Positions 11,920 through 24,341 of a stretch of DNA of 64,000 nt are shown here, piece by piece. The stretch comes from Methylothermaceae bacterium (GTDB lineage: Bacteria; Pseudomonadota; Gammaproteobacteria; Methylococcales; Methylothermaceae). The stretch is from contig JALSSF010000064.1 of the NCBI GenBank assembly GCA_026984375.1, forward strand, positions 88 through 64,087. Reading direction: 5' to 3'. Position numbers and translations under genes: made by a program. How positions within the stretch are numbered: the stretch's first letter is position 1; every line of letters begins with the position of its first letter. The notes under the pieces were generated by a model. That model was not told the DNA's origin. It saw only the letters and a list, made by a program, of their open reading frames with translations, and did no database searches.

Positions 11920-11980
11920 TTACACCGCCTGAAAACCGGGCTTCAGCCCAGTTTCAAGCCGCCCCTTCGGGGGTGGTTTT
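11920..11980 (+). repeat. 61-bp repeat, copy 1 (inverted relative to 20925-20985)
   Basis: 50/61 identical, ungapped, to the reverse complement of 20925-20985; overlaps the last codons of the HsdR-N gene; on the minus strand contains two hairpins, the second followed by T residues. Confidence 0.85.
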
Positions 11981-16787: not shown

Positions 16788-18334
16788 TGCCGCCGATCAA
16801 AACGACCATGCCCAGAGGGCTGCGCCAGCAGGATCTCAAACGCGAAATCGCCGGCCCCGGCCTGACCGGCATCCGCCAGGCATGGAACGCCGCCACCGTG
16901 GCCGCGGGCCTGACCCCGGCGCGTCTGGCGCGGATACTGCGCGGGGCCGACGCCGGCGACCTGCACGACTATCTGACCCTGGCCGAGGAGATGGAGGAGC
17001 GCGACCCCCATTACGCCGCGGTGCTGGGGGTGCGCAAGCGGGCCGTGCTGGGACTGGCGCCGGTGGTGGAGGCTGCCACCGACGCCGCCCGCGATATCGA
17101 GATCGCCGACGCGGTGCGCGAGCTGACGGCCGATCCAGGTTTCGTCGAGCTGTGCGCCGACCTGCTCGACGCCCTGGGCAAGGGATTCGCCGTGTGCGAG
17201 ATCGTCTGGACCACCGGCAGGCGCTGGGTTCCGGCAGAATACCACTGGCGCGATCCCCGGTGGTTCCGGTTCGACCCGGTCGACGGCCGCACCCTGCGCC
17301 TGCTCGACGAACGGTCCCCGGACGGCCTGCCGCTGCCGCCCTACAAGTTCGCCGTCCACGTCCCCAGGCTCAAGTCGGGCCTGCCGATCCGCGGCGGGCT
17401 GGCCCGGCTGGCCTCGGCCGCCTTGATGTGCAAGTCCTACACCGTGGCCGACTGGATGGCCTTCGCCGAGGTGTTCGGCATGCCCCTGCGTCTGGGGCGC
17501 TACGGGCCCGGGGCCAGCGAGGCCGACATCGAGACCCTGGTGCGGGCGGTGGCCAACCTGGGGCACGACGCCGCCGCCGTCCTGCCGGACTCGATGCGCA
17601 TCGAATTCCAGGAGGCCGGGCAGGGAGCCGGCGGCCACGAGCTGTTCCTGCGCCTGGCCGAATGGCTCGACCGCCAGATCTCCAAGGCGGTGCTGGGCCA
17701 GACCATGACCGCCGATTCCGGTTCATCCTACGCCCAGGCCAAGGTCCACGACGAGGTGCGCGCCGACATCCTGGAGGCCGACGCCCGCCAGCTGGCCGCC
17801 ACCCTGCAGCGCGACCTGGTGATTCCGTTCGTCGATCTCAACTTCGGCCCCCAGCCGGTTTATCCGCGCCTGACCCTGCCGGTGCGCGAGCCGGAGGACA
17901 TCACCGCCCTGGCCGACGCCCTGGCCAAACTGGTGCCGTTGGGGAACCTGGGCATCCAGGCGTCGGTGGTGCGCGACCGGCTCGGCTTCCCGGACCCGGA
18001 GGACGGCGCCGACCTGCTGGGCCAACCCGCCGCCCCGGCCCTCCAGCGCGCCGCCAACCGGCAGAGTGCGGCGGCCGCCCACCCGGCCGCCGTCATGGCC
18101 GACACCCTGGCAGGCCAGGCCGACGCCGAAATCGCCCGAATGCTCGACCGGATCCGCGTCATGCTCGACCAGGCCGGCGACCTGGAACAGTTCAAGGAAA
18201 TGCTCCTGGCCGCCTACGGGGATCTGGATTCTGGCGGTTTGGTCGAGGCCATTGGGCAGGCGATGACCGCGTCCCACCTGGCCGGCCGCTACGATCTGGC
18301 CAAGGGCTCGGGGCTCCTCGATGGCGAGAATTGA
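16787..18334 (+). CDS. Portal protein (Mu gp29, DUF935)
   Basis: EEMEERDPHY..VL..RK, DALGKGFAV.EI.W, FAEVFGMPLRLGRY, ISKAVLGQT. Confidence 0.93.
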   Translation: MPPIKTTMPRGLRQQDLKREIAGPGLTGIRQAWNAATVAAGLTPARLARILRGADAGDLHDYLTLAEEMEERDPHYAAVLGVRKRAVLGLAPVVEAATDAARDIEIADAVRELTADPGFVELCADLLDALGKGFAVCEIVWTTGRRWVPAEYHWRDPRWFRFDPVDGRTLRLLDERSPDGLPLPPYKFAVHVPRLKSGLPIRGGLARLASAALMCKSYTVADWMAFAEVFGMPLRLGRYGPGASEADIETLVRAVANLGHDAAAVLPDSMRIEFQEAGQGAGGHELFLRLAEWLDRQISKAVLGQTMTADSGSSYAQAKVHDEVRADILEADARQLAATLQRDLVIPFVDLNFGPQPVYPRLTLPVREPEDITALADALAKLVPLGNLGIQASVVRDRLGFPDPEDGADLLGQPAAPALQRAANRQSAAAAHPAAVMADTLAGQADAEIARMLDRIRVMLDQAGDLEQFKEMLLAAYGDLDSGGLVEAIGQAMTASHLAGRYDLAKGSGLLDGEN

Positions 18335-19520
18335 GGTCAGCCCCGACGGGGCCAGCATCGAAAACGCCCGCCTGCCCTTCACCGAGCAGATCGCCTTCTT
18401 CCGCGGCAAGCTGGGCAATCTGATTCCCACGCGAAGGTGGGACGACATCCAGAAGTCCGCCCACGACAAAAGTTTCATGGTCGCCGGGGCGATGAAGGCG
18501 GACCTTTTGGCCGACCTGGCCCAGGCTGTCGATCGGGCCGTCGCCGACGGCAAATCCATCCAGTGGTTCCGGGAAAATTTCTTCGAGATCGTCGCCAGGC
18601 ACGGCTGGACCGGCTACACCGGCGCCGATACCAAAAAGGGCCGGGCCTGGCGTACCCGGGTGATCTACCAGACCAACCTGCTCACCAGTTACAACGCCGG
18701 GCGGCTGGCGCAACTGAAAGAGGGCGGATTCAAATACTGGATCTACCACCACGACGACTCGGTGCGCCATCCAAGGCCCTTGCACCAGGCTTGGGACGGG
18801 CTGAGCCTGCCGGCAAGTCACGACTTCTGGAAAACCCATTACCCGCCCAACGGCTGGGGCTGCCAATGCTACCTCTCCGGCGCCCGCTCGGAACGCGGCG
18901 CCAGAAGGCTCGGCGGCGACCCGGACAAACCGATCGACCCCGAGTGGCTCAAGACCGACCCCAAGACCGGGGCGCCGGTGGGCATCGACAAGGGCTGGGA
19001 CTATATGCCTGGGGCGACGGTGGTCGATACGGTGCGGGCGCTGCGGGACAAGCTCGACCGGTTGCCGCCGCGGCCCGCTATCGCTGTCATTCAGGATTGG
19101 CTGGGGACAGAGGCGTTCGCCGCCTGGCTCGACAACCCGCAAGGCAACTGGCCCCTGGTCCGGCTGCCCGACGAGGATGCCGGGCGCATCGGGGCGCAGA
19201 CGACGGTGGCCGACCTGTCGCCGGAGACGGCGGCCAAGCAGAAACGCGAGCACCCGGAGCTGACGCCGGAAGAATACCTCCTGGCTCAGCGGGTGATCGA
19301 TGGGCCAGATTACAAGCAGGTCGAGAAGAATCCAAAAACCGGCACCCAAAGTCTGGTTTACATCCAGGTTATCGACGGCAACGACAGTGGTGGTTACGTG
19401 CTGGTGGTCAAAGCCACCAAGAGCGGGAAGGGATTGTTCGTGACCAGCTACCGTCGCCTGTCCCGGCAGGAAGCGGAGCGTGACCGAGAAATCCAGCGGA
19501 TTTTGCGGCGACGCAAATAA
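18321..19520 (+). CDS. MuF (Mu gp30/gpF) head protein with C-terminal PBECR-type (Barnase/EndoU/colicin/RelE-like) RNase domain
   Basis: MuF core (YQTNL..SY.AGR, RPLH..WDG, HYPPNGWGC.C); C-terminal KQKREHPEL..EEY...YVLVVKATKSG..LFVTSYRR. Confidence 0.85.
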   Translation: MARIEVSPDGASIENARLPFTEQIAFFRGKLGNLIPTRRWDDIQKSAHDKSFMVAGAMKADLLADLAQAVDRAVADGKSIQWFRENFFEIVARHGWTGYTGADTKKGRAWRTRVIYQTNLLTSYNAGRLAQLKEGGFKYWIYHHDDSVRHPRPLHQAWDGLSLPASHDFWKTHYPPNGWGCQCYLSGARSERGARRLGGDPDKPIDPEWLKTDPKTGAPVGIDKGWDYMPGATVVDTVRALRDKLDRLPPRPAIAVIQDWLGTEAFAAWLDNPQGNWPLVRLPDEDAGRIGAQTTVADLSPETAAKQKREHPELTPEEYLLAQRVIDGPDYKQVEKNPKTGTQSLVYIQVIDGNDSGGYVLVVKATKSGKGLFVTSYRRLSRQEAERDREIQRILRRRK

Positions 19521-19681: not shown

Positions 19682-20158
19682 GTGATCCGCATCCACATCG
19701 ACGACCGCCAGATTCAACAGGCCCTGCGCCGCCTCCAGGAGGCCGCAGACGACCTCACCCCCGCCCTCGAGGACATCGGCGAGTATCTCGCCCGTGCCAC
19801 CCGTCAGCGTTTCGCCGAGGGCAAAGACCCAAATGGCGCTCCCTGGGAACCGCTGTCGGCCAGGACAATCGCCCGAAAGGGCCACGCCAAACCCCTGATC
19901 GGCGAGACCGGTCTGTTGAGAAAGATCCGCTACCAACTGGAAGGGCCGGACACGGTGGTCGTCGGCACCGGTGCCGAATATGGCGCCACCCACCAGTTCG
20001 GGGCCAAAAAGGGCCAGTTCGGCAAGACACGGAAGGGCCGCCCCATCCCCTGGGGCGACATCCCCGCCCGGCCGTTTTTGGGTGTCTCTGACGAGAACCG
20101 GACCGCCATCCTCGACATCCTCGCCGAGCATCTGGAAGGCGCGATTCATGGGCGCTGA
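19682..20158 (+). CDS. Phage virion morphogenesis protein (Mu gpG-like)
   Basis: F.EGKDPNG.PWEPLS, L..TG.L, VGT..EYGATHQFG, IPARPFLGVS. Confidence 0.9.
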   Translation: MIRIHIDDRQIQQALRRLQEAADDLTPALEDIGEYLARATRQRFAEGKDPNGAPWEPLSARTIARKGHAKPLIGETGLLRKIRYQLEGPDTVVVGTGAEYGATHQFGAKKGQFGKTRKGRPIPWGDIPARPFLGVSDENRTAILDILAEHLEGAIHGR

Positions 20159-20273
20159 TTTCAGCGTTTTCTTATGAGCGATTCTGAGGCGATTTCAGCG
20201 CCGTTTTCACCAATCCCGCTACCTAGAGTCATGTGGCATTCCTTTCGCGTCTTCATGGTTGTTTAACCCCTGT

Positions 20274-20816
20274 TTAACTTTGATGTTCATCCTTGGGTCT
20301 CGGACGGAAGAATTGGTTCGGGTCGGGAAAGCCCTTCGCCGCCAGGGCCATGAACCAACGGAAGTTGGTTTCACCGCTGTATTGGCCCTTGGCGACGTTG
20401 CCGAACAGCCCGGCGGCGAAGAACACCTCCTTCTCCCACACGCCAGGTCGCAAACCGATGGCCCGCAGCCAGTCCAGGTCCAAGATGCTTTCCTCCAGCG
20501 GATAATCGGAAGCGTTGGGATTGAGATAATGCCAGTTGGGCGCATCGGTCCAAATGTGGGTGACGTCGGCGTGCATCGGCAGGCCGCCCGCGTGTTTCCA
20601 GGCCGCCTCGGCCAACAGTCGCCGGGGCCGGGTCAGCCAATTCGGCTCCACGCCCAGCATCAATTCCAGGCCGGTCAGTTCCGACACCCCCAGCGCTTCG
20701 GCAAACGCCCCCTTGGTGCCTTTGCCGGTGTAGACCGCCCGGGCGAAGGTCTGGACGAACCGGGCCATGCGCTCGAACGGCAGGCCGGCGCAGTCGATGG
20801 CGACGAGATTCGTCAT
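20274..20816 (-). CDS. Antisense accessory protein of unknown function
   Basis: 180-aa ORF with GC3-rich coding pattern, bounded by imperfect 18-bp direct repeats; no clear SD. Confidence 0.6.
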   Translation of the reverse strand: MTNLVAIDCAGLPFERMARFVQTFARAVYTGKGTKGAFAEALGVSELTGLELMLGVEPNWLTRPRRLLAEAAWKHAGGLPMHADVTHIWTDAPNWHYLNPNASDYPLEESILDLDWLRAIGLRPGVWEKEVFFAAGLFGNVAKGQYSGETNFRWFMALAAKGFPDPNQFFRPRPKDEHQS

Positions 20817-20924
20817 GATGGTTAATACCCTGTTAATCCGTTATAACAATAGCATTTTAAGACGGATTGGACAGGGTCTGAATCGTCACCCCTCATTTCC
20901 CCAGTCTGATTTTGGCGGGCACGA

Positions 20925-20985
20925 AAAACCGTCCCCGAAGGGGCGGCTTGAAGGGGCCTTGAAGCCCGGTTTCCAGGCAGCGTAA
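20925..20985 (-). repeat. 61-bp repeat, copy 2
   Basis: Reverse complement matches 11920-11980 at 50/61 positions. Confidence 0.85.
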
Positions 20986-21036
20986 AGCCGCTCTAAAGTC
21001 TCTACTGGCGCCGCAAGAAAAATAAACCAGATCAGG

Positions 21037-21064
21037 TTGAATTTTTCTCCAGTAATGGTACAAT
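21037..21064 (+). promoter_or_regulatory. Sigma70-type promoter of the XRE/ImmA accessory operon
   Basis: TTGAAT-16 nt-TACAAT with TG extension; palindrome TTATCGATAA at 21081-21090 may be an operator. Confidence 0.65.
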
Positions 21065-21143
21065 TAGGGTTGAGGATGGGTTATCGATAAAGCGTACGGT
21101 TAGGTGAAGACTCTAGTGGAGATACAGAATTGGAGGTGCAGCA

Positions 21144-21512
21144 ATGAAGCTCAGCCCGTTTGGCAAGGCGGTTCGCAAACTTCGGATAAGTCGCGGGGAA
21201 ACGCAGTTCGACGCTGCGAACGCGGTTGGGGTTTCAGTTGCTTTTTGGTCGGCCATCGAGACGGGCAGGAAGCACGTGCCGGAGGATTTGTTGCGGAGGA
21301 TCGTGGCCCATTTCGAACTCTCAAATGAGGAGGCCAAAGAGCTGGAACGATTGGCGTGGATTTCCCGTAAGGAAGTCACCATCAACATGGAAAATCTTAG
21401 CGACCAAAACCGCGAACTGGTTGTTGGCTTTGCCAGGAAATTCAGCGAACTGAATGAGGAAACCAAACGAAAATTGCGCAACTTGTTGGAACAAAAGGGA
21501 GGGCTTTCGTAG
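21144..21512 (+). CDS. XRE-family HTH repressor
   Basis: FGKAVRKLRISRGETQFDAANAVGVSVAFWSAIETGRK; GGAGG RBS; AT-richer. Confidence 0.88.
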   Translation: MKLSPFGKAVRKLRISRGETQFDAANAVGVSVAFWSAIETGRKHVPEDLLRRIVAHFELSNEEAKELERLAWISRKEVTINMENLSDQNRELVVGFARKFSELNEETKRKLRNLLEQKGGLS

Positions 21513-22066
21513 TGTCCGACAGTGTCGTTCTAGCCCCGCCCCTCAGCAGATACCGGATCCGTGAGGCAGCTAAGAGCGTTCGGATGATCTGGTGTGATCT
21601 GACGGGGCGGGATGATCCGTACTTTCCCATCGTCGAATTTCTCGATGTGGTGCTGCCAGCTGCAAACGATGAATTCGTTCTTGATGTCTTGCCTATGGAA
21701 ACCATGGGCGACGTCCATGGCATGACCTACCCTGATCGGAATCTGATCCAAATCCGGGAGGATGTGTATCTAGGGGCAAAGCGCGGGATAGGCCGCGACA
21801 GAATGACGATGGCTCACGAACTTGGACATTATGTTTTGCACGCCGGCCTGGGCTTGGCTCGCGCAATTCCAGCGGAAAAAGTCGCAGCGTACCGGAGCAG
21901 CGAATGGCAAGCCAACGCTTTCGCCGGCGAATTGCTGATTTCTGCCAACCATATTTCCGTGTGTAGGAATGCTTCGGAGGCGAAACTGAAATTTGGCGTA
22001 TCAGCGCAAGCTGCTGAATACCAATGGCGGATATTTGAACGTGACGGATTGGTAAGGAAAAGGTGA
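21512..22066 (+). CDS. ImmA/IrrE-family Zn metallopeptidase
   Basis: R.RMTMAHELGHYVLH (HExxH) plus EWQANAFAGELL; TAGTG-coupled to the XRE gene. Confidence 0.9.
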   Translation: MSDSVVLAPPLSRYRIREAAKSVRMIWCDLTGRDDPYFPIVEFLDVVLPAANDEFVLDVLPMETMGDVHGMTYPDRNLIQIREDVYLGAKRGIGRDRMTMAHELGHYVLHAGLGLARAIPAEKVAAYRSSEWQANAFAGELLISANHISVCRNASEAKLKFGVSAQAAEYQWRIFERDGLVRKR

Positions 22067-22222
22067 CACCGAGTGGCCGCTCAATGTCACCTTGCTTCCA
22101 AGTGGGGTGCGCCGGGAGGACCCCACACTTGGCAGGCAGATTGCTAAAGTTTGCAATGCAATCATAGGCGAAACGGACGCCCCTGCCAAGAGCCAAAATC
22201 TCCTCCCGGAAGGAGGTGAGAT
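22060..22222 (+). ncRNA. Highly structured intercistronic leader (putative cis-regulatory RNA)
   Basis: Stems 22060-68/22085-93, 22102-08/22120-26, 22128-36/22182-90 enclosing 22139-44/22158-63 and 22167-70/22178-81, then CCTCC/GGAGG hairpin covering the SD. Confidence 0.6.
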
Positions 22223-22224
22223 AT

Positions 22225-22362
22225 GTGCAAAAGAGGCTGAAAAAGGCCCCACCGGGCTACCGTTGGGTTTTTACCCGCTTCCGCCGGGTGAAAAACTCCA
22301 ACCGGTTGCTCGACGCCCATGACTACGGTTATAAGTGTTGGGCATTCCTGGTGCGGGCCTGA
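22225..22362 (+). CDS. Small basic 45-aa protein (absent from the ORF track)
   Basis: GGAGGTG SD 7 nt before GTG; MQKRLKKAPPGYRWVFTRFRRVKNSNRLLDAHDYGYKCWAFLVRA*; followed by a terminator. Confidence 0.7.
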   Translation: MQKRLKKAPPGYRWVFTRFRRVKNSNRLLDAHDYGYKCWAFLVRA

Positions 22363-22370
22363 CCGGAGTA

Positions 22371-22403
22371 CGGCCGGGGCATCCGCTCCGGCCGCCTTTT
22401 CTT
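22371..22403 (+). terminator. Intrinsic terminator closing the accessory operon
   Basis: CGGCCGGGGC-atcc-GCTCCGGCCG followed by CCTTTTCTT. Confidence 0.8.
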
Positions 22404-22404
22404 G

Positions 22405-22459
22405 ACTGAATCCCATCCCCCTTCGTCCGCCCGCCTGCCGCCTTTAATCTGGCGGCATG
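22405..22459 (+). promoter_or_regulatory. Late promoter of the head/tail operon (PI-like)
   Basis: 46/55 identical to 13117-13171; TAATCT 6 nt before ATG; no SD. Confidence 0.8.
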
Positions 22460-23413
22460 AACGAAAGCAGTACCCCCATCCCTGCCCTGTGCCGCGCCCT
22501 GCCGGCGGGGGACGGCCCGCCCGAGTGGCTGTTGCTGGTGCCGGCGGGCCGCTTCGAGGGGCGTGACGGTCGCTTCTGGGTCAACGACCGGCCCGATGAA
22601 GTCGTCGCCGCCTTCGAAGCCGGCGGCCAGCCGCTGCCCATCGACTGGGAGCACGCCACCGAGATCAAGGCCCCGGCCGGCGATCCGGCCCCGGCCGCCG
22701 GCTGGATCACCGCCATGGAGGTCCGCGGCGGCGAGGTCTGGGGGCGGGCGGAATGGACCGAGGCGGCGCTGGAACAGATAAAGGCCAAAGCCTACCGCTA
22801 CTACAGCCCCGCCTTCCTGTTCGATCCCGATTCCCGCCGGGTGGCGGCCCTGACCTCGGTCGGGCTGACCAACCGGCCCAATCTCCACGTTCCCGCCTTG
22901 AACCAACGACAGGAGCACGCCATGCAGAAAGCGCTTCTGGCCGCCTTGGGCCTGCCCGAGACGGCCGACGACAAAGCGGTGCTGGATGCGGTGACGGCGC
23001 TGAAAGCGCGCCTGGATACCGCATTGAACGCCGCCCAAACCCCCAATCTGGAGCAGTACGTGCCCCGGGCCGATTACGACGCCGCCCTCAACCGGGCAAA
23101 GGAGGCCGAGGCGAAGTTGGCGGAAATGGAGCGGCAGCGCCTGGAGGCCGAGATCGAGGCCGAGATCGCCAAGGCCCTCGAGGCCGGCAAGATCACCCCG
23201 GCCACGGTGGACTATCACAAGGCCCAGTGCCGCCTGGATGGCGGGCTGGAACGCTTCCGCCGATTCGTCGAGGCGGCGCCGGCCGTCGTCGACCGAAACG
23301 ACCAGGCTGGCAGCCGGCCGCCCGAACAGGAACGGGCCTTGTGCGCCGAGGAACGCTACGTCTGCGCCCAGCTCGGCATCCCCGAGGATGAATTCTTGAA
23401 ACTGAAGGAGTAA
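22457..23413 (+). CDS. Mu gpI-like prohead protease with nested scaffold (gpZ-like internal start at 22922)
   Basis: LPIDWEHAT, PAAGWI, YRYYSPAF, SVGLTNRPNL; in-frame AGGAG-ATG at 22922 (MQKALLAALGL). Confidence 0.92.
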   Translation: MNESSTPIPALCRALPAGDGPPEWLLLVPAGRFEGRDGRFWVNDRPDEVVAAFEAGGQPLPIDWEHATEIKAPAGDPAPAAGWITAMEVRGGEVWGRAEWTEAALEQIKAKAYRYYSPAFLFDPDSRRVAALTSVGLTNRPNLHVPALNQRQEHAMQKALLAALGLPETADDKAVLDAVTALKARLDTALNAAQTPNLEQYVPRADYDAALNRAKEAEAKLAEMERQRLEAEIEAEIAKALEAGKITPATVDYHKAQCRLDGGLERFRRFVEAAPAVVDRNDQAGSRPPEQERALCAEERYVCAQLGIPEDEFLKLKE

Positions 23414-23417
23414 GCCC

Positions 23418-24341
23418 ATGGCCATCGTCACCCCCGCCCTGCTTTCCTCGTTGATGACCGGGTTCCGCAAGGAATTCCAGGACGGCCTCGGCATGGCCGA
23501 GACCCAGTGGAACCGGATCGCCTCCGAGGTGCCCTCGTCCAGCAAATCCAACACCTACGGCTGGCTCGGTCAGTGGCCCGGGTTCCGCGAATGGGTCGGC
23601 GCCCGCGTGGTCAAGGACATGGCCGCCCACGGTTACGAGATCGTCAACAAGCTGTGGGAGTCGACCGTCGGGGTCAAGCGCACCGACATCGAGGACGACA
23701 ACCTCGGCATCTACGCCCCCATGTTCCGGGAGATGGGGCGGGCCACCGCGGCCCACCCGGACGAGCTGGTCTTCGGGCTGCTCAAGGCCGGCGACGCCAC
23801 CCTGTGCTACGACGGCCAGTTCTTCTTCGACGTCGATCACCCGGTCTATCCCAACGCCGACGGCACCGGCACCGCGACCCTGGTGAGCAACTACGATTCC
23901 GGCGGCGCCACCCCGGGGCCGGCCTGGTTCCTGCTGGACACCTCGCGGGCGATCAAGCCGATCATCTTCCAGCGCCGCCTGGCCCCCGAGTTCACCGCCA
24001 TGACCAAGATGGACGACGAGCAGGTGTTCATGGCCGACGAATACCGCTACGGGGTGCGGGCGCGCCACAACGTCGGCTTCGGCTTCTGGCAGATGGCCTA
24101 CATGAGCAAGGCGCCCTTGACCGCGGCCAATTTCAACGCCGCCTACGACGCCATGTGCCAGTTCACCGCCGACGGCGGCCGGCCGCTGGGCATCAAGCCC
24201 AACCTGCTGGTGGTGCCGCCGCAGCTGCGGGTGGACGCCCTCAAGGTGGTGAAATCCGAGCTGATCGTCGACGGCGGCGCCGGGGTGACCAACATCAACC
24301 GCGACGTGGTGGACGTGCTCGTCTCGCCCTGGCTGATCTGA
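23418..24341 (+). CDS. Major head protein (Mu gpT-like)
   Basis: TYGWLG.WP.FREW.G, WESTVGV.R.DIEDD, KPIIFQ.R, FGFWQMAY, KPNLLVVPP. Confidence 0.95.
   Translation: MAIVTPALLSSLMTGFRKEFQDGLGMAETQWNRIASEVPSSSKSNTYGWLGQWPGFREWVGARVVKDMAAHGYEIVNKLWESTVGVKRTDIEDDNLGIYAPMFREMGRATAAHPDELVFGLLKAGDATLCYDGQFFFDVDHPVYPNADGTGTATLVSNYDSGGATPGPAWFLLDTSRAIKPIIFQRRLAPEFTAMTKMDDEQVFMADEYRYGVRARHNVGFGFWQMAYMSKAPLTAANFNAAYDAMCQFTADGGRPLGIKPNLLVVPPQLRVDALKVVKSELIVDGGAGVTNINRDVVDVLVSPWLI

Follow-up and report, generated by a model that had tools for sequence, protein, structure and literature searches.

An XRE–ImmA module in a Mu-like prophage, with a predicted antisense RNA and a long-range leader pairing that may govern translation of a putative small effector

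INTRODUCTION

Switches in which a repressor is cleaved have precedents in CapH/CapP, ImmR/ImmA and DdrO/IrrE (bioRxiv 10.1101/2022.04.27.489752; 10.64898/2026.05.16.725639). In CapP, single-stranded DNA (ssDNA) is bound via a GAF domain (10.64898/2026.05.16.725639), and CapH/CapP have been reported to lie divergent from the operon that they regulate, with DUF2188 noted near CapH/CapP-like pairs (bioRxiv 10.1101/2022.04.27.489752). Control of another kind operates at repZ/repA of IncI1 and IncB/O plasmids, where the antisense Inc RNA/RNAI blocks an activating pseudoknot (PMC8053102 and its references 49-51). Here we analyse a locus of a Methylothermaceae bacterium whose features recall both. 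It lies in a stretch of 64,000 nucleotides (GenBank assembly GCA_026984375.1, contig JALSSF010000064.1, positions 88 to 64,087), which is called the window below and to which all coordinates without a locus name refer. The module in question (21025-22394) is an insert low in guanine plus cytosine (GC), with a Mu gpG gene on one side and a gpI gene on the other; it holds an XRE-family helix-turn-helix (HTH) repressor gene, an ImmA/IrrE-type metallopeptidase gene, a structured leader and a small open reading frame (ORF) of 45 codons.

As the overall best explanation, to which we assign a probability of roughly 0.55, we propose that XRE and ImmA control transcription of the module and that an antisense RNA keeps a long-range translational activator of the small ORF, which would encode an effector, from acting. 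An initial annotation of the window had suggested two layers of control, one proteolytic and one set in RNA structure. A second, RNA-level layer is retained here in another form: in place of a toggle between CTTGG and two CCAAG copies, we predict a small antisense RNA (sRNA) and a pairing between a leader loop and the sequence that masks the Shine–Dalgarno (SD) element.

RESULTS

The small ORF and its protein family

22225-22362, plus strand: small ORF, 45 amino acids plus stop, GTG start, (M)QKRLKKAPPGYRWVFTRFRRVKNSNRLLDAHDYGYKCWAFLVRA; phrog_33859 match, 6e-16
22223-22240, plus strand: out-of-frame mini-ORF ATG TGC AAA AGA GGC TGA (MCKRG, then stop), at optimal SD spacing, overlapping the in-frame GTG

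Sequence comparison shows the small ORF to belong to a genuine, conserved family of proteins. In an exhaustive HMMER search the relatives fell into 69 representative clusters (50% identity), which, over-extended gene calls aside, are nearly all 42-54 amino acids long and have the consensus APxGFRWVFCRYRRVKNSxRxLDAHDYGYEAWxFLVR. Across 75 ungapped core codon alignments the diversity at codon positions 1/2/3 was 0.29/0.24/0.63, position 3 being 2.7 times as diverse as position 2, and single-base differences were synonymous rather than nonsynonymous by 5.3:1. AlphaFold2, supplied with 69 relatives, models a soluble four-strand beta-meander with one short helix (confidence score, pLDDT, 89.5). Cluster breadth, codon-position diversity, the synonymous excess and this model together argue that what the initial annotation had listed as a basic 45-residue ORF encodes a real protein; basic it is, with an isoelectric point (pI) of 11.0, and hydrophilic (GRAVY -0.78).

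The search by tblastn that had been recommended for this peptide found it at 74-76% identity on ColE1-type plasmids of Klebsiella and E. coli; plasmids of Legionella and Acinetobacter and a phage record carry it too, and over all plasmid and phage hits identity is 53-76%; a one-genome-per-species scan yielded 80 loci, mostly in gamma- and beta-proteobacteria. PGAP leaves the ORF unannotated in several of the Klebsiella/E. coli plasmid records, and a full-text search for motifs of the peptide, within the papers searchable, found none.

Two possible starts are in frame, GTG 22225 (45 amino acids, 8 nt after GGAGG) and GTG 22216 (48 amino acids); ATG 22223 is out of frame and opens the mini-ORF listed above. 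In 29 of the 77 translation initiation regions (TIRs) compared, an ATG likewise lies out of frame after the SD and before the true start, opening just 2-10 codons in 23 of them; such an ATG may serve as a decoy start or a coupling device. A programmed frameshift from this ATG into the main frame was ruled out: the compared TIR sequences have no conserved slippery site.

A long-range pairing in the leader

22098-22132, both strands: SL1 stem-loop in the predicted sRNA, with its complement SL1c in the mRNA leader; -17.6 kcal/mol
22112-22120, plus strand: 'up' element CCGGGAGGA, in the SL1c loop, complement of the sRNA loop; proposed anti-anti-SD activator and core target of the sRNA loop
22128-22136, plus strand: helix P2, 5' strand, CTTGGCAGG; partner strand 22182-22190
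22182-22190, plus strand: 3' strand of helix P2, CCTGCCAAG, which overlaps the sRNA -35 of the other strand
22201-22209, plus strand: 'tir' element TCCTCCCGG, the anti-SD arm (CCTCC 22202-22206) together with part of the SD-hairpin loop
22212-22216, plus strand: SD GGAGG, within AAGGAGGTGA; pairs with CCTCC 22202-22206, hairpin -9.2 kcal/mol

The spacer between ImmA and the small ORF had been described as a structured leader of 160 nt. It measures 149 nt (22067-22215), and it is indeed structured: the fold reaches -71.4 kcal/mol (z -3.8), and none of 200 shuffles was as stable. The SD had been seen to be paired in a CCTCC/GGAGG hairpin, an observation that extends beyond the window in that an occluding CTCC...GGAGG hairpin recurs across window-like leaders. 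As side observations, the coding part of the small ORF (22236-22362) is itself predicted to form long helices, and leader and ORF together (22060-22405) fold at -164 kcal/mol (z -6.0).

The masking arm has a second potential partner upstream, for CCGGGAGGA (22112-22120) is the perfect 9-bp complement of TCCTCCCGG (22201-22209). As isolated elements, the up/tir duplex is worth -19.9 kcal/mol against -9.2 for the SD hairpin. Across loci the first element keeps to about -85 to -116 from the SD and the second to about -9 to -18, and the two sequences change together in a compensatory manner (for example CCTGAGAGG/CCTCTCAGG, TTGGGATGG/TCATCCCAG, CCCAGAGGG/TCCTCTGGG, ACTCGGGA/TCCCGAGT and CCGCTAGG/CCTGGCGG). 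A second leader subfamily has pairs of its own, among them GGGAAGC/GCTTCCC, GGGAAAC/GTTTCCC, GGTAAGC/GCTTACC and TGGAGAGC/GCTCTCCA.

Covariation was measured on the best contiguous helix, comparing cognate with permuted non-cognate pairs. From 27 leaders aligned with MAFFT, RNAalifold obtained no structure, the alignment shifting register, as MAFFT also did on SL1 segments; it is for this reason that cognate-versus-permuted helix tests took the place of a covariance model. The tests gave the following results.

up/tir, window-like leaders: n=34, z 7.7
up/tir, other leaders: n=45, z 5.4
up/tir, all leaders, restricted windows: n=77, z 11.4
SL1, stems on either side of the loop (52 of them distinct): n=58, z 11.8
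helix P2, 22128-22136 with 22182-22190: n=77, z 6.7
control, far-upstream window versus tir: n=77, z -0.2
control, up versus coding start: n=77, z -0.8
control, mid-leader versus coding: n=77, z 3.0

The covariation analysis proposed with the initial annotation thus points to a pairing that co-varies across loci. It was replicated independently in 25 new leaders from viral contigs that were fetched via ImmA and not via the ORF or the RNA (up/tir z=4.8, p=5e-5; control not significant).

Helix P2 also settles the fate of the earlier toggle, in which CTTGG (22128-22132) was to pair with one or other of two CCAAG copies. The copies exist, at 22098 and 22186. Pairing with the copy at 22186 is part of the conserved P2, which varies in compensatory fashion in relatives (L012 CTTGCATGG/CCATGCAAG; L006 ACTAGGA/TCCTAGT); pairing with the copy at 22098 forms only the base of SL1 in the window and is not conserved, being absent in L017 for one. 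Mutually exclusive folds of these strands as the main switch have accordingly been given up.

A predicted antisense RNA on the minus strand

22161-22189, minus strand: sRNA promoter TTGGCA (22189-22184)-17-TATGAT (22166-22161), 10/12 matches
22052-22155, minus strand: predicted cis-antisense sRNA of about 100 nt, with 5' tail, SL1 with loop UCCUCCCGG, terminator hairpin, then UUUUCC (RNAfold)
22060-22093, minus strand: sRNA terminator hairpin, overlapping the ImmA stop codon (22064-22066)

The sRNA gene came to notice when seven aligned loci were seen to share, upstream of the small ORF, A-n-n-n-T-A on the plus strand, which on the minus strand reads as a TA...T -10, with a TTG... -35 17 nt off. 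The window sRNA folds into two hairpins at -42.9 kcal/mol (RNAfold). Its terminator hairpin has no U-tail on the plus strand, so that read-through of the operon into the leader is expected.

In 84 non-identical loci, with the 110 nt preceding the small ORF as promoter window, the best promoter score was higher on the minus strand in 75 (mean 8.5 versus 5.4 bits), and a hairpin with T-run terminator lay farther upstream in minus orientation in 63 loci and in plus orientation in 18. Sixty loci give a predicted RNA of two hairpins, 80 nt long at the median; among these, TA...T is kept in 58, TTG in 54 and the 17-nt spacer in 49, and the start lies at a constant distance from the ORF (median 65 nt upstream of its anchor). 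The minus-strand promoter also wins in all 25 leaders found independently through ImmA, and these promoter and terminator signals recur in minus orientation whatever the upstream gene. We infer that the sRNA is produced.

Rfam searched over 20000-23500 of the window on both strands (E<=1) gave only two chance-level matches, elsewhere, and in 20 related loci, at the gathering threshold, only RNAI, two tRNAs and int-alpA, all outside the cassette. By sequence the sRNA thus appears to be a family without an Rfam entry and previously undescribed. Loop-loop kissing between the sRNA and the SD hairpin was ruled out, the loops being of the same sense and not generally palindromic.

Linkage to XRE–ImmA and other partners

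The initial annotation had regarded the module as self-contained and had asked whether the ORF co-occurs with XRE–ImmA pairs. Starting from the ORF, 32 loci have XRE and ImmA immediately upstream, encoded on the same strand and 123-195 nt away; starting from ImmA, the ORF follows 130-160 nt downstream in 14 of the 16 closest ImmA relatives in IMG/VR viral contigs. On ColE1-type plasmids of Klebsiella and E. coli the XRE–ImmA pair is divergent from a short operon that ends in the small ORF; in two such loci, L090 (NZ_CP065845.1, a whole 4-kb plasmid) and L091, this operon consists of a 60-residue ORF and the small ORF. The 4-kb Klebsiella plasmid carries little else: the module forms its main cargo, and apart from the ColE1 replicon (Rop, RNAI) there is one additional HTH gene. 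DUF2188 directly follows the small ORF in some relatives.

The mobility of the unit is borne out by the settings of the cassette: prophages, integrative islands beside integrases and tRNA genes, and plasmids. Its carriers are plasmids of Klebsiella, E. coli, Acinetobacter and Legionella, prophages of E. coli and numerous environmental proteobacteria. The module is rare, with 13 instances in 5426 complete E. coli genomes, and close ImmA relatives were absent from 400 sampled genomes of the phylum.

What had not been foreseen is that the sRNA+ORF cassette also follows unrelated upstream genes. On the loci compared, this cassette is the conserved core and XRE+ImmA its commonest partner. In XRE+ImmA's place, between about 700 and 130 nt ahead of the small ORF, L023, L030-L032, L035, L040, L047, L051, L057, L061-L063, L071 and L087 encode a protein of the phrog_2602 family, some 190 amino acids long; in its AlphaFold2 model a disordered linker joins a helical N-domain to a C-terminal beta-hairpin with a helix. 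The alternative partner families had no match in Pfam or PADLOC, PHROGs gave phrog_2602 only, and Foldseek with the AlphaFold2 model of the alternative partner gave no informative match. Stand-alone cassettes carry strong plus-strand promoters about 170-190 nt upstream of the ORF, namely TTGACC-17-TATATT in L054 (2790-2830) and TTGACA-17-TATATT in L014; transcripts from these would have a long 5' untranslated region (UTR) that fully overlaps the sRNA gene. In the window, the plus strand between ImmA and the small ORF has no credible promoter (best score 5.1 bits).

The XRE–ImmA operon

21025-21038: operator-like palindrome AACC-N6-GGTT over the promoter -35
21037-21064, plus strand: operon sigma-70 promoter TTGAAT (21037-42)-16-TACAAT (21059-64), extended -10 (TGG), 9/12 matches
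21081-21090: palindrome TTATCGATAA in the 5' UTR
21144-21512, plus strand: XRE-family HTH repressor gene, 122 amino acids; HTH_31 3e-10, PADLOC capH 2.3e-10
21512-22066, plus strand: ImmA/IrrE (M78) zinc metallopeptidase gene, 184 amino acids; Peptidase_M78 PF06114 2.7e-10, PADLOC capP 2.3e-12
22371-22394, plus strand: intrinsic operon terminator, 10-bp stem, CCTTTTCTTG tail

Much of the operon's anatomy was correctly read at the outset. The promoter is present, and its position and form are kept in homologous loci; the terminator closes the module; and the two genes are an XRE HTH and a coupled HExxH peptidase. The XRE gene has a GGAGG SD at 21132-21136 and scores 40.7 bits with HTH_31 (cutoff 27); ImmA scores 40.5 bits with PF06114 (cutoff 22). 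A TAGTG stop/start overlap joins the two genes, indicating translational coupling. The HELGH motif of ImmA occupies residues 102-106, with H, E and H invariant in 15 relatives. Its best PDB match by profile is CapP 7t5t (7.6e-14, residues 82-175), over the peptidase core only; the PADLOC capP match spans model positions 41-118 of 242, and the profile also resembles RmrA and spr1629-type antitoxin-repressor models.

The palindrome TTATCGATAA singled out earlier does exist, but conservation was looked for in related loci and none was found. What recurs is AACC-N6-GGTT, of the same type and over the -35 in L017 (ATTCAACCTAATTAGGTTGAAT), L012, L039 and L048, with CAAC-N7-GTTG in its place in enteric relatives; from this recurrence, 21025-21038 is the likely XRE operator.

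The surrounding prophage

19682-20158: gpG (Phage_tail_S), a Mu-type virion morphogenesis gene
20274-20816, minus strand: orphan 180-residue ORF between gpG and the module
22457-23413: Mu I protease/scaffold gene (gpI)

The module had been described as an AT-richer operon between gpG-like and gpI-like genes, and base composition agrees: GC is 0.536 at 21000-22400 against 0.676 and 0.703 in the flanks. The AT-richer insert as a whole spans 20160-22456 (0.54-0.59, in prophage surroundings of 0.68-0.70), the stretch at 20160-20990 that holds the orphan ORF standing at about 0.59. The orphan ORF is without a match in Pfam, NCBIfam, PADLOC and PHROG and does not adjoin the module in other loci. The setting is best explained by a mobile three-gene cassette carried as a moron in a Mu-like prophage. 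In a Zoogloeaceae metagenome-assembled genome (L045:1930-4072) an XRE–ImmA–small ORF module is likewise directly upstream of a Mu I-like gene, so that, with the window, at least two Mu-like prophages have the module at this site. An empty-site comparison gave no result, the prophage gpI not being found in 40 relatives.

Some further features of the vicinity may be recorded. A 61-bp element directly 5' of the module promoter (20925-20985) is identical at 50 of 61 positions to the reverse complement of 11920-11980 and folds as a minus-strand terminator (CCGCCCCTTCGGGGACGG + TTTT). A MuF-like protein (18321-19520) has a weak C-terminal match, below the cutoff (E 2.8e-4), to PBECR3, a Barnase/EndoU/ColicinE5-RelE-like nuclease domain. 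Inside gpI, a sub-threshold Rfam match to Mu-gpT-DE RNA (22848-22924; 18 bits against a gathering threshold of 49, E 0.92) is probably due to chance.

DISCUSSION

A model for control of the module

Based on these observations, we propose a model in which two layers of control act on one small gene. XRE would repress its own promoter through AACC-N6-GGTT over the -35. On the pattern of ImmR/ImmA, DdrO/IrrE and CapH/CapP, a stress or DNA-damage signal would lead the co-translated ImmA to cleave XRE, and derepressed transcription would then pass XRE, ImmA and the non-terminating hairpin into the leader and the 45-codon ORF. There the SD would be shut by its local hairpin until the CCGGGAGGA loop pairs with the TCCTCCCGG arm and frees it. 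The convergent sRNA, made from its own constitutive-looking promoter in the leader and fully complementary to the activator hairpin, would sequester that hairpin; the sRNA–mRNA duplex would probably be cleaved, and the ORF would stay silent until the mRNA outnumbers the sRNA. Derepression of the operon may, through convergent transcription, occlude the sRNA promoter as well. The output would be a basic, beta-rich, cytosolic protein of 45 residues that acts as an atypical type I-like toxin. Most likely this protein is a growth-arresting or anti-phage effector, a role favoured by the tight double control, the moron position in a late operon, the presence on small plasmids and the defence-type neighbours. 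The logic is best read, by analogy, as type I toxin-antitoxin-like or IncI-alpha-like.

A more general form of the model may be ventured, tentatively. The new sRNA family, the SD-opening activator hairpin and the family of basic beta-meander proteins of 42-54 residues (phrog_33859) could make up a portable translational safety-catch for a novel sort of small soluble effector, a unit which mobile elements have coupled downstream of at least three unrelated sensor/regulator families (XRE+ImmA, phrog_2602 and the 250-residue family); the XRE+ImmA version would then be a self-contained module for abortive infection or addiction, triggered by damage and equipped with a non-membrane type I toxin.

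Points against the model and alternative explanations

Several observations weigh against the explanation that we favour. The sRNA and the read-through mRNA are predictions resting on signals rather than transcripts, and the U-run after the sRNA terminator in the window is short (UUUUCC). In the second leader subfamily tir lies in a hairpin loop upstream of the SD, and the link of pairing to activation is less plain there. Wobble counts do not clearly assign the up/tir pairing to the plus strand (G.U-sense z 11.5, A.C-sense z 8.5); only the plus strand carries both elements in one predicted transcript. The mid-leader control, at z=3.0, means that modest signals could arise through relatedness alone. 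The hydrophilic, basic nature of the 45-residue protein differs from that of classical membrane type I toxins; the protein has no match in Pfam, NCBIfam (E<=1) or PADLOC and no PDB relative by profile or by fold, and a fold search in BFVD gave only uncharacterised small viral proteins. The window ImmA is without the GAF domain by which CapP senses ssDNA. Lastly, with the same spacing the sRNA+ORF cassette follows phrog_2602 proteins (14 loci) and a family of about 250 residues (9 loci), and elsewhere a KAP NTPase (Legionella plasmids), a STAND-like ATPase or a GmrSD_N protein, so that XRE/ImmA are not obligatory.

A serious rival accepts the regulation as proposed and takes the 45-residue protein for a regulator of the element's own life cycle, such as an antirepressor, a cofactor of excision or replication or an adaptor that binds nucleic acids; the antisense RNA would then exert control of the immunity or copy-number type, of which P22 sar/ant, P1 c4/ant and IncI-alpha Inc RNA/repZ are examples. 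It suits the occurrence of the cassette in prophages, integrative islands and plasmids, the modelled peptide, whose basic, soluble and beta-rich character would fit nucleic-acid binding, and two precedents: ImmR/ImmA-type pairs classically govern element induction (bioRxiv 10.1101/2022.04.27.489752), and the nearest mechanistic parallel, IncI1/IncB, governs a replication protein (PMC8053102). We nevertheless consider it unlikely, for the window copy sits inside a Mu-like late morphogenesis operon, far from immunity, integration and replication regions, the 4-kb ColE1 plasmid carrier already has RNAI/Rop control, and the cassette also follows the defence-type genes for KAP NTPase, STAND-like ATPase and GmrSD_N. 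The link between ImmA and the ORF bears on another arrangement, that of two adjacent, independent modules, in which XRE–ImmA works alone as a switch or forms a toxin-antitoxin-like pair of the COG2856-Xre kind and the sRNA and small ORF form an autonomous type I-like addiction cassette with a plus-strand promoter of its own, outside XRE/ImmA control. That the ORF keeps a fixed distance and strand in the 14 of 16 closest ImmA relatives, that the link outlasts the change of geometry on the Klebsiella/E. coli plasmids, that no promoter above 5.1 bits separates ImmA from the ORF in the window and that the hairpin after ImmA is without a plus-strand U-tail all tell against it, and leave it rather doubtful in the face of the points that it explains well: at least five unrelated upstream gene types that precede the cassette, stand-alone copies with good plus-strand promoters (L054, L014), and an ImmA profile that is like RmrA and spr1629-type antitoxin-repressors.

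The antisense RNA itself could be dispensed with if the minus-strand signals were by-products of a purely cis-acting leader that answers to upstream translation, a protein or a ligand. The long-range pairing, P2 and the SD hairpin are all on the plus strand and conserved without any need of an sRNA, which is known as a prediction and ends in a short U-run in the window. We regard this as improbable all the same: TA...T -10 and TTG -35 elements at 17 nt are kept specifically in minus orientation (75/84 and 25/25 loci), A-runs before the hairpin, useless on the plus strand, are nevertheless found in 63/84 loci, and the signals hold a constant distance from the ORF (start at a median of 65 nt upstream of its anchor).

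Implications

What would follow if control by XRE/ImmA and an antisense RNA proves true? There would be an sRNA family without an Rfam entry, a widespread and usually unannotated small-protein family without a Pfam or NCBIfam entry, and a new regulatory design, in which a proteolytic repressor switch is stacked on an antisense-controlled translational activator. The concept of type I toxin-antitoxin systems would be widened past membrane peptides, and CapH/CapP-like regulators would gain a minimal, one-peptide output whose logic is easy to test. Since the cassette is found on E. coli plasmids and in E. coli prophages, an experimentally tractable allele is at hand for E. coli K-12, and the covariation data supply ready-made compensatory mutants.

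Comparison with known systems

The module is best filed as a combination of two known kinds, the repressor-peptidase switch and the antisense-controlled translation of a small ORF; the RNA family and the protein family are undescribed in the libraries searched, and a literature search for ImmA, type I toxin-antitoxin and antisense RNA together gave nothing relevant. With CapH/CapP, ImmR/ImmA and DdrO/IrrE it shares an XRE-type HTH repressor with an M78 HExxH peptidase, a small accessory operon and residence on mobile elements. PADLOC capH and capP are the best matches, CapP 7t5t is the nearest solved structure, and some relatives have the divergent geometry (the Klebsiella/E. coli plasmids) or DUF2188 that go with CapH/CapP. 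In contrast to CapP, the window peptidase of 184 residues is a core only, lacking the C-terminal ssDNA-binding GAF domain, and XRE–ImmA are co-directional with their output, upstream of it in the same operon. The output, a single 45-residue protein with a further antisense-RNA layer, is undescribed for such switches.

With type I toxin-antitoxin systems of the SOS response (tisB/istR-1, symE/symR, dinQ/agrB, and hok/sok for mRNA folding) the module has in common an ORF of fewer than 60 codons, a long structured leader with a sequestered SD, an adjacent opposite-strand sRNA of 60-110 nt with a constitutive-looking promoter (predicted here) and a damage-type repressor. It differs in that the peptide is hydrophilic, with a pI of 11 and a predicted beta-meander instead of a membrane helix, that the repressor is the cassette-encoded XRE with its protease and not LexA, and that the sRNA would target an upstream activator loop and not the SD or a standby site. 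RosmerTA (RmrA) and spr1629-type systems resemble it in the models of their M78 core and HTH, but they are fused HTH-peptidases of 360-400 residues with a large toxin, whereas here there are two small genes and no RmrT-like gene. ptaRNA1/XCV2162 is also a horizontally spread pair of sRNA and small ORF, found on plasmids and islands of beta- and gamma-proteobacteria; identity with it was ruled out, there being no match to the NCBIfam ptaRNA1-family toxin (E<=1) and none in Rfam.

The IncI-alpha (ColIb-P9) repZ and IncB (pMU720) repA systems regulate a replication initiator and not a 45-residue protein without Rep similarity. Unlike theirs, the leaders of the module have no leader peptide ending at the start, with an overlapping out-of-frame mini-ORF in its stead in many loci, and the cassette is found in prophages and islands besides plasmids. 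The likeness lies in the mechanism: in those plasmids a leader loop pairs beside the ribosome-binding site (RBS) and thereby activates translation, while a cis-antisense RNA competes for the loop (PMC8053102 and its references 49-51). In both cases the loop of the antisense RNA and the distal element are identical in sequence, and the pairing of a loop with an RBS-proximal element in the leaders of the module is supported by covariation.

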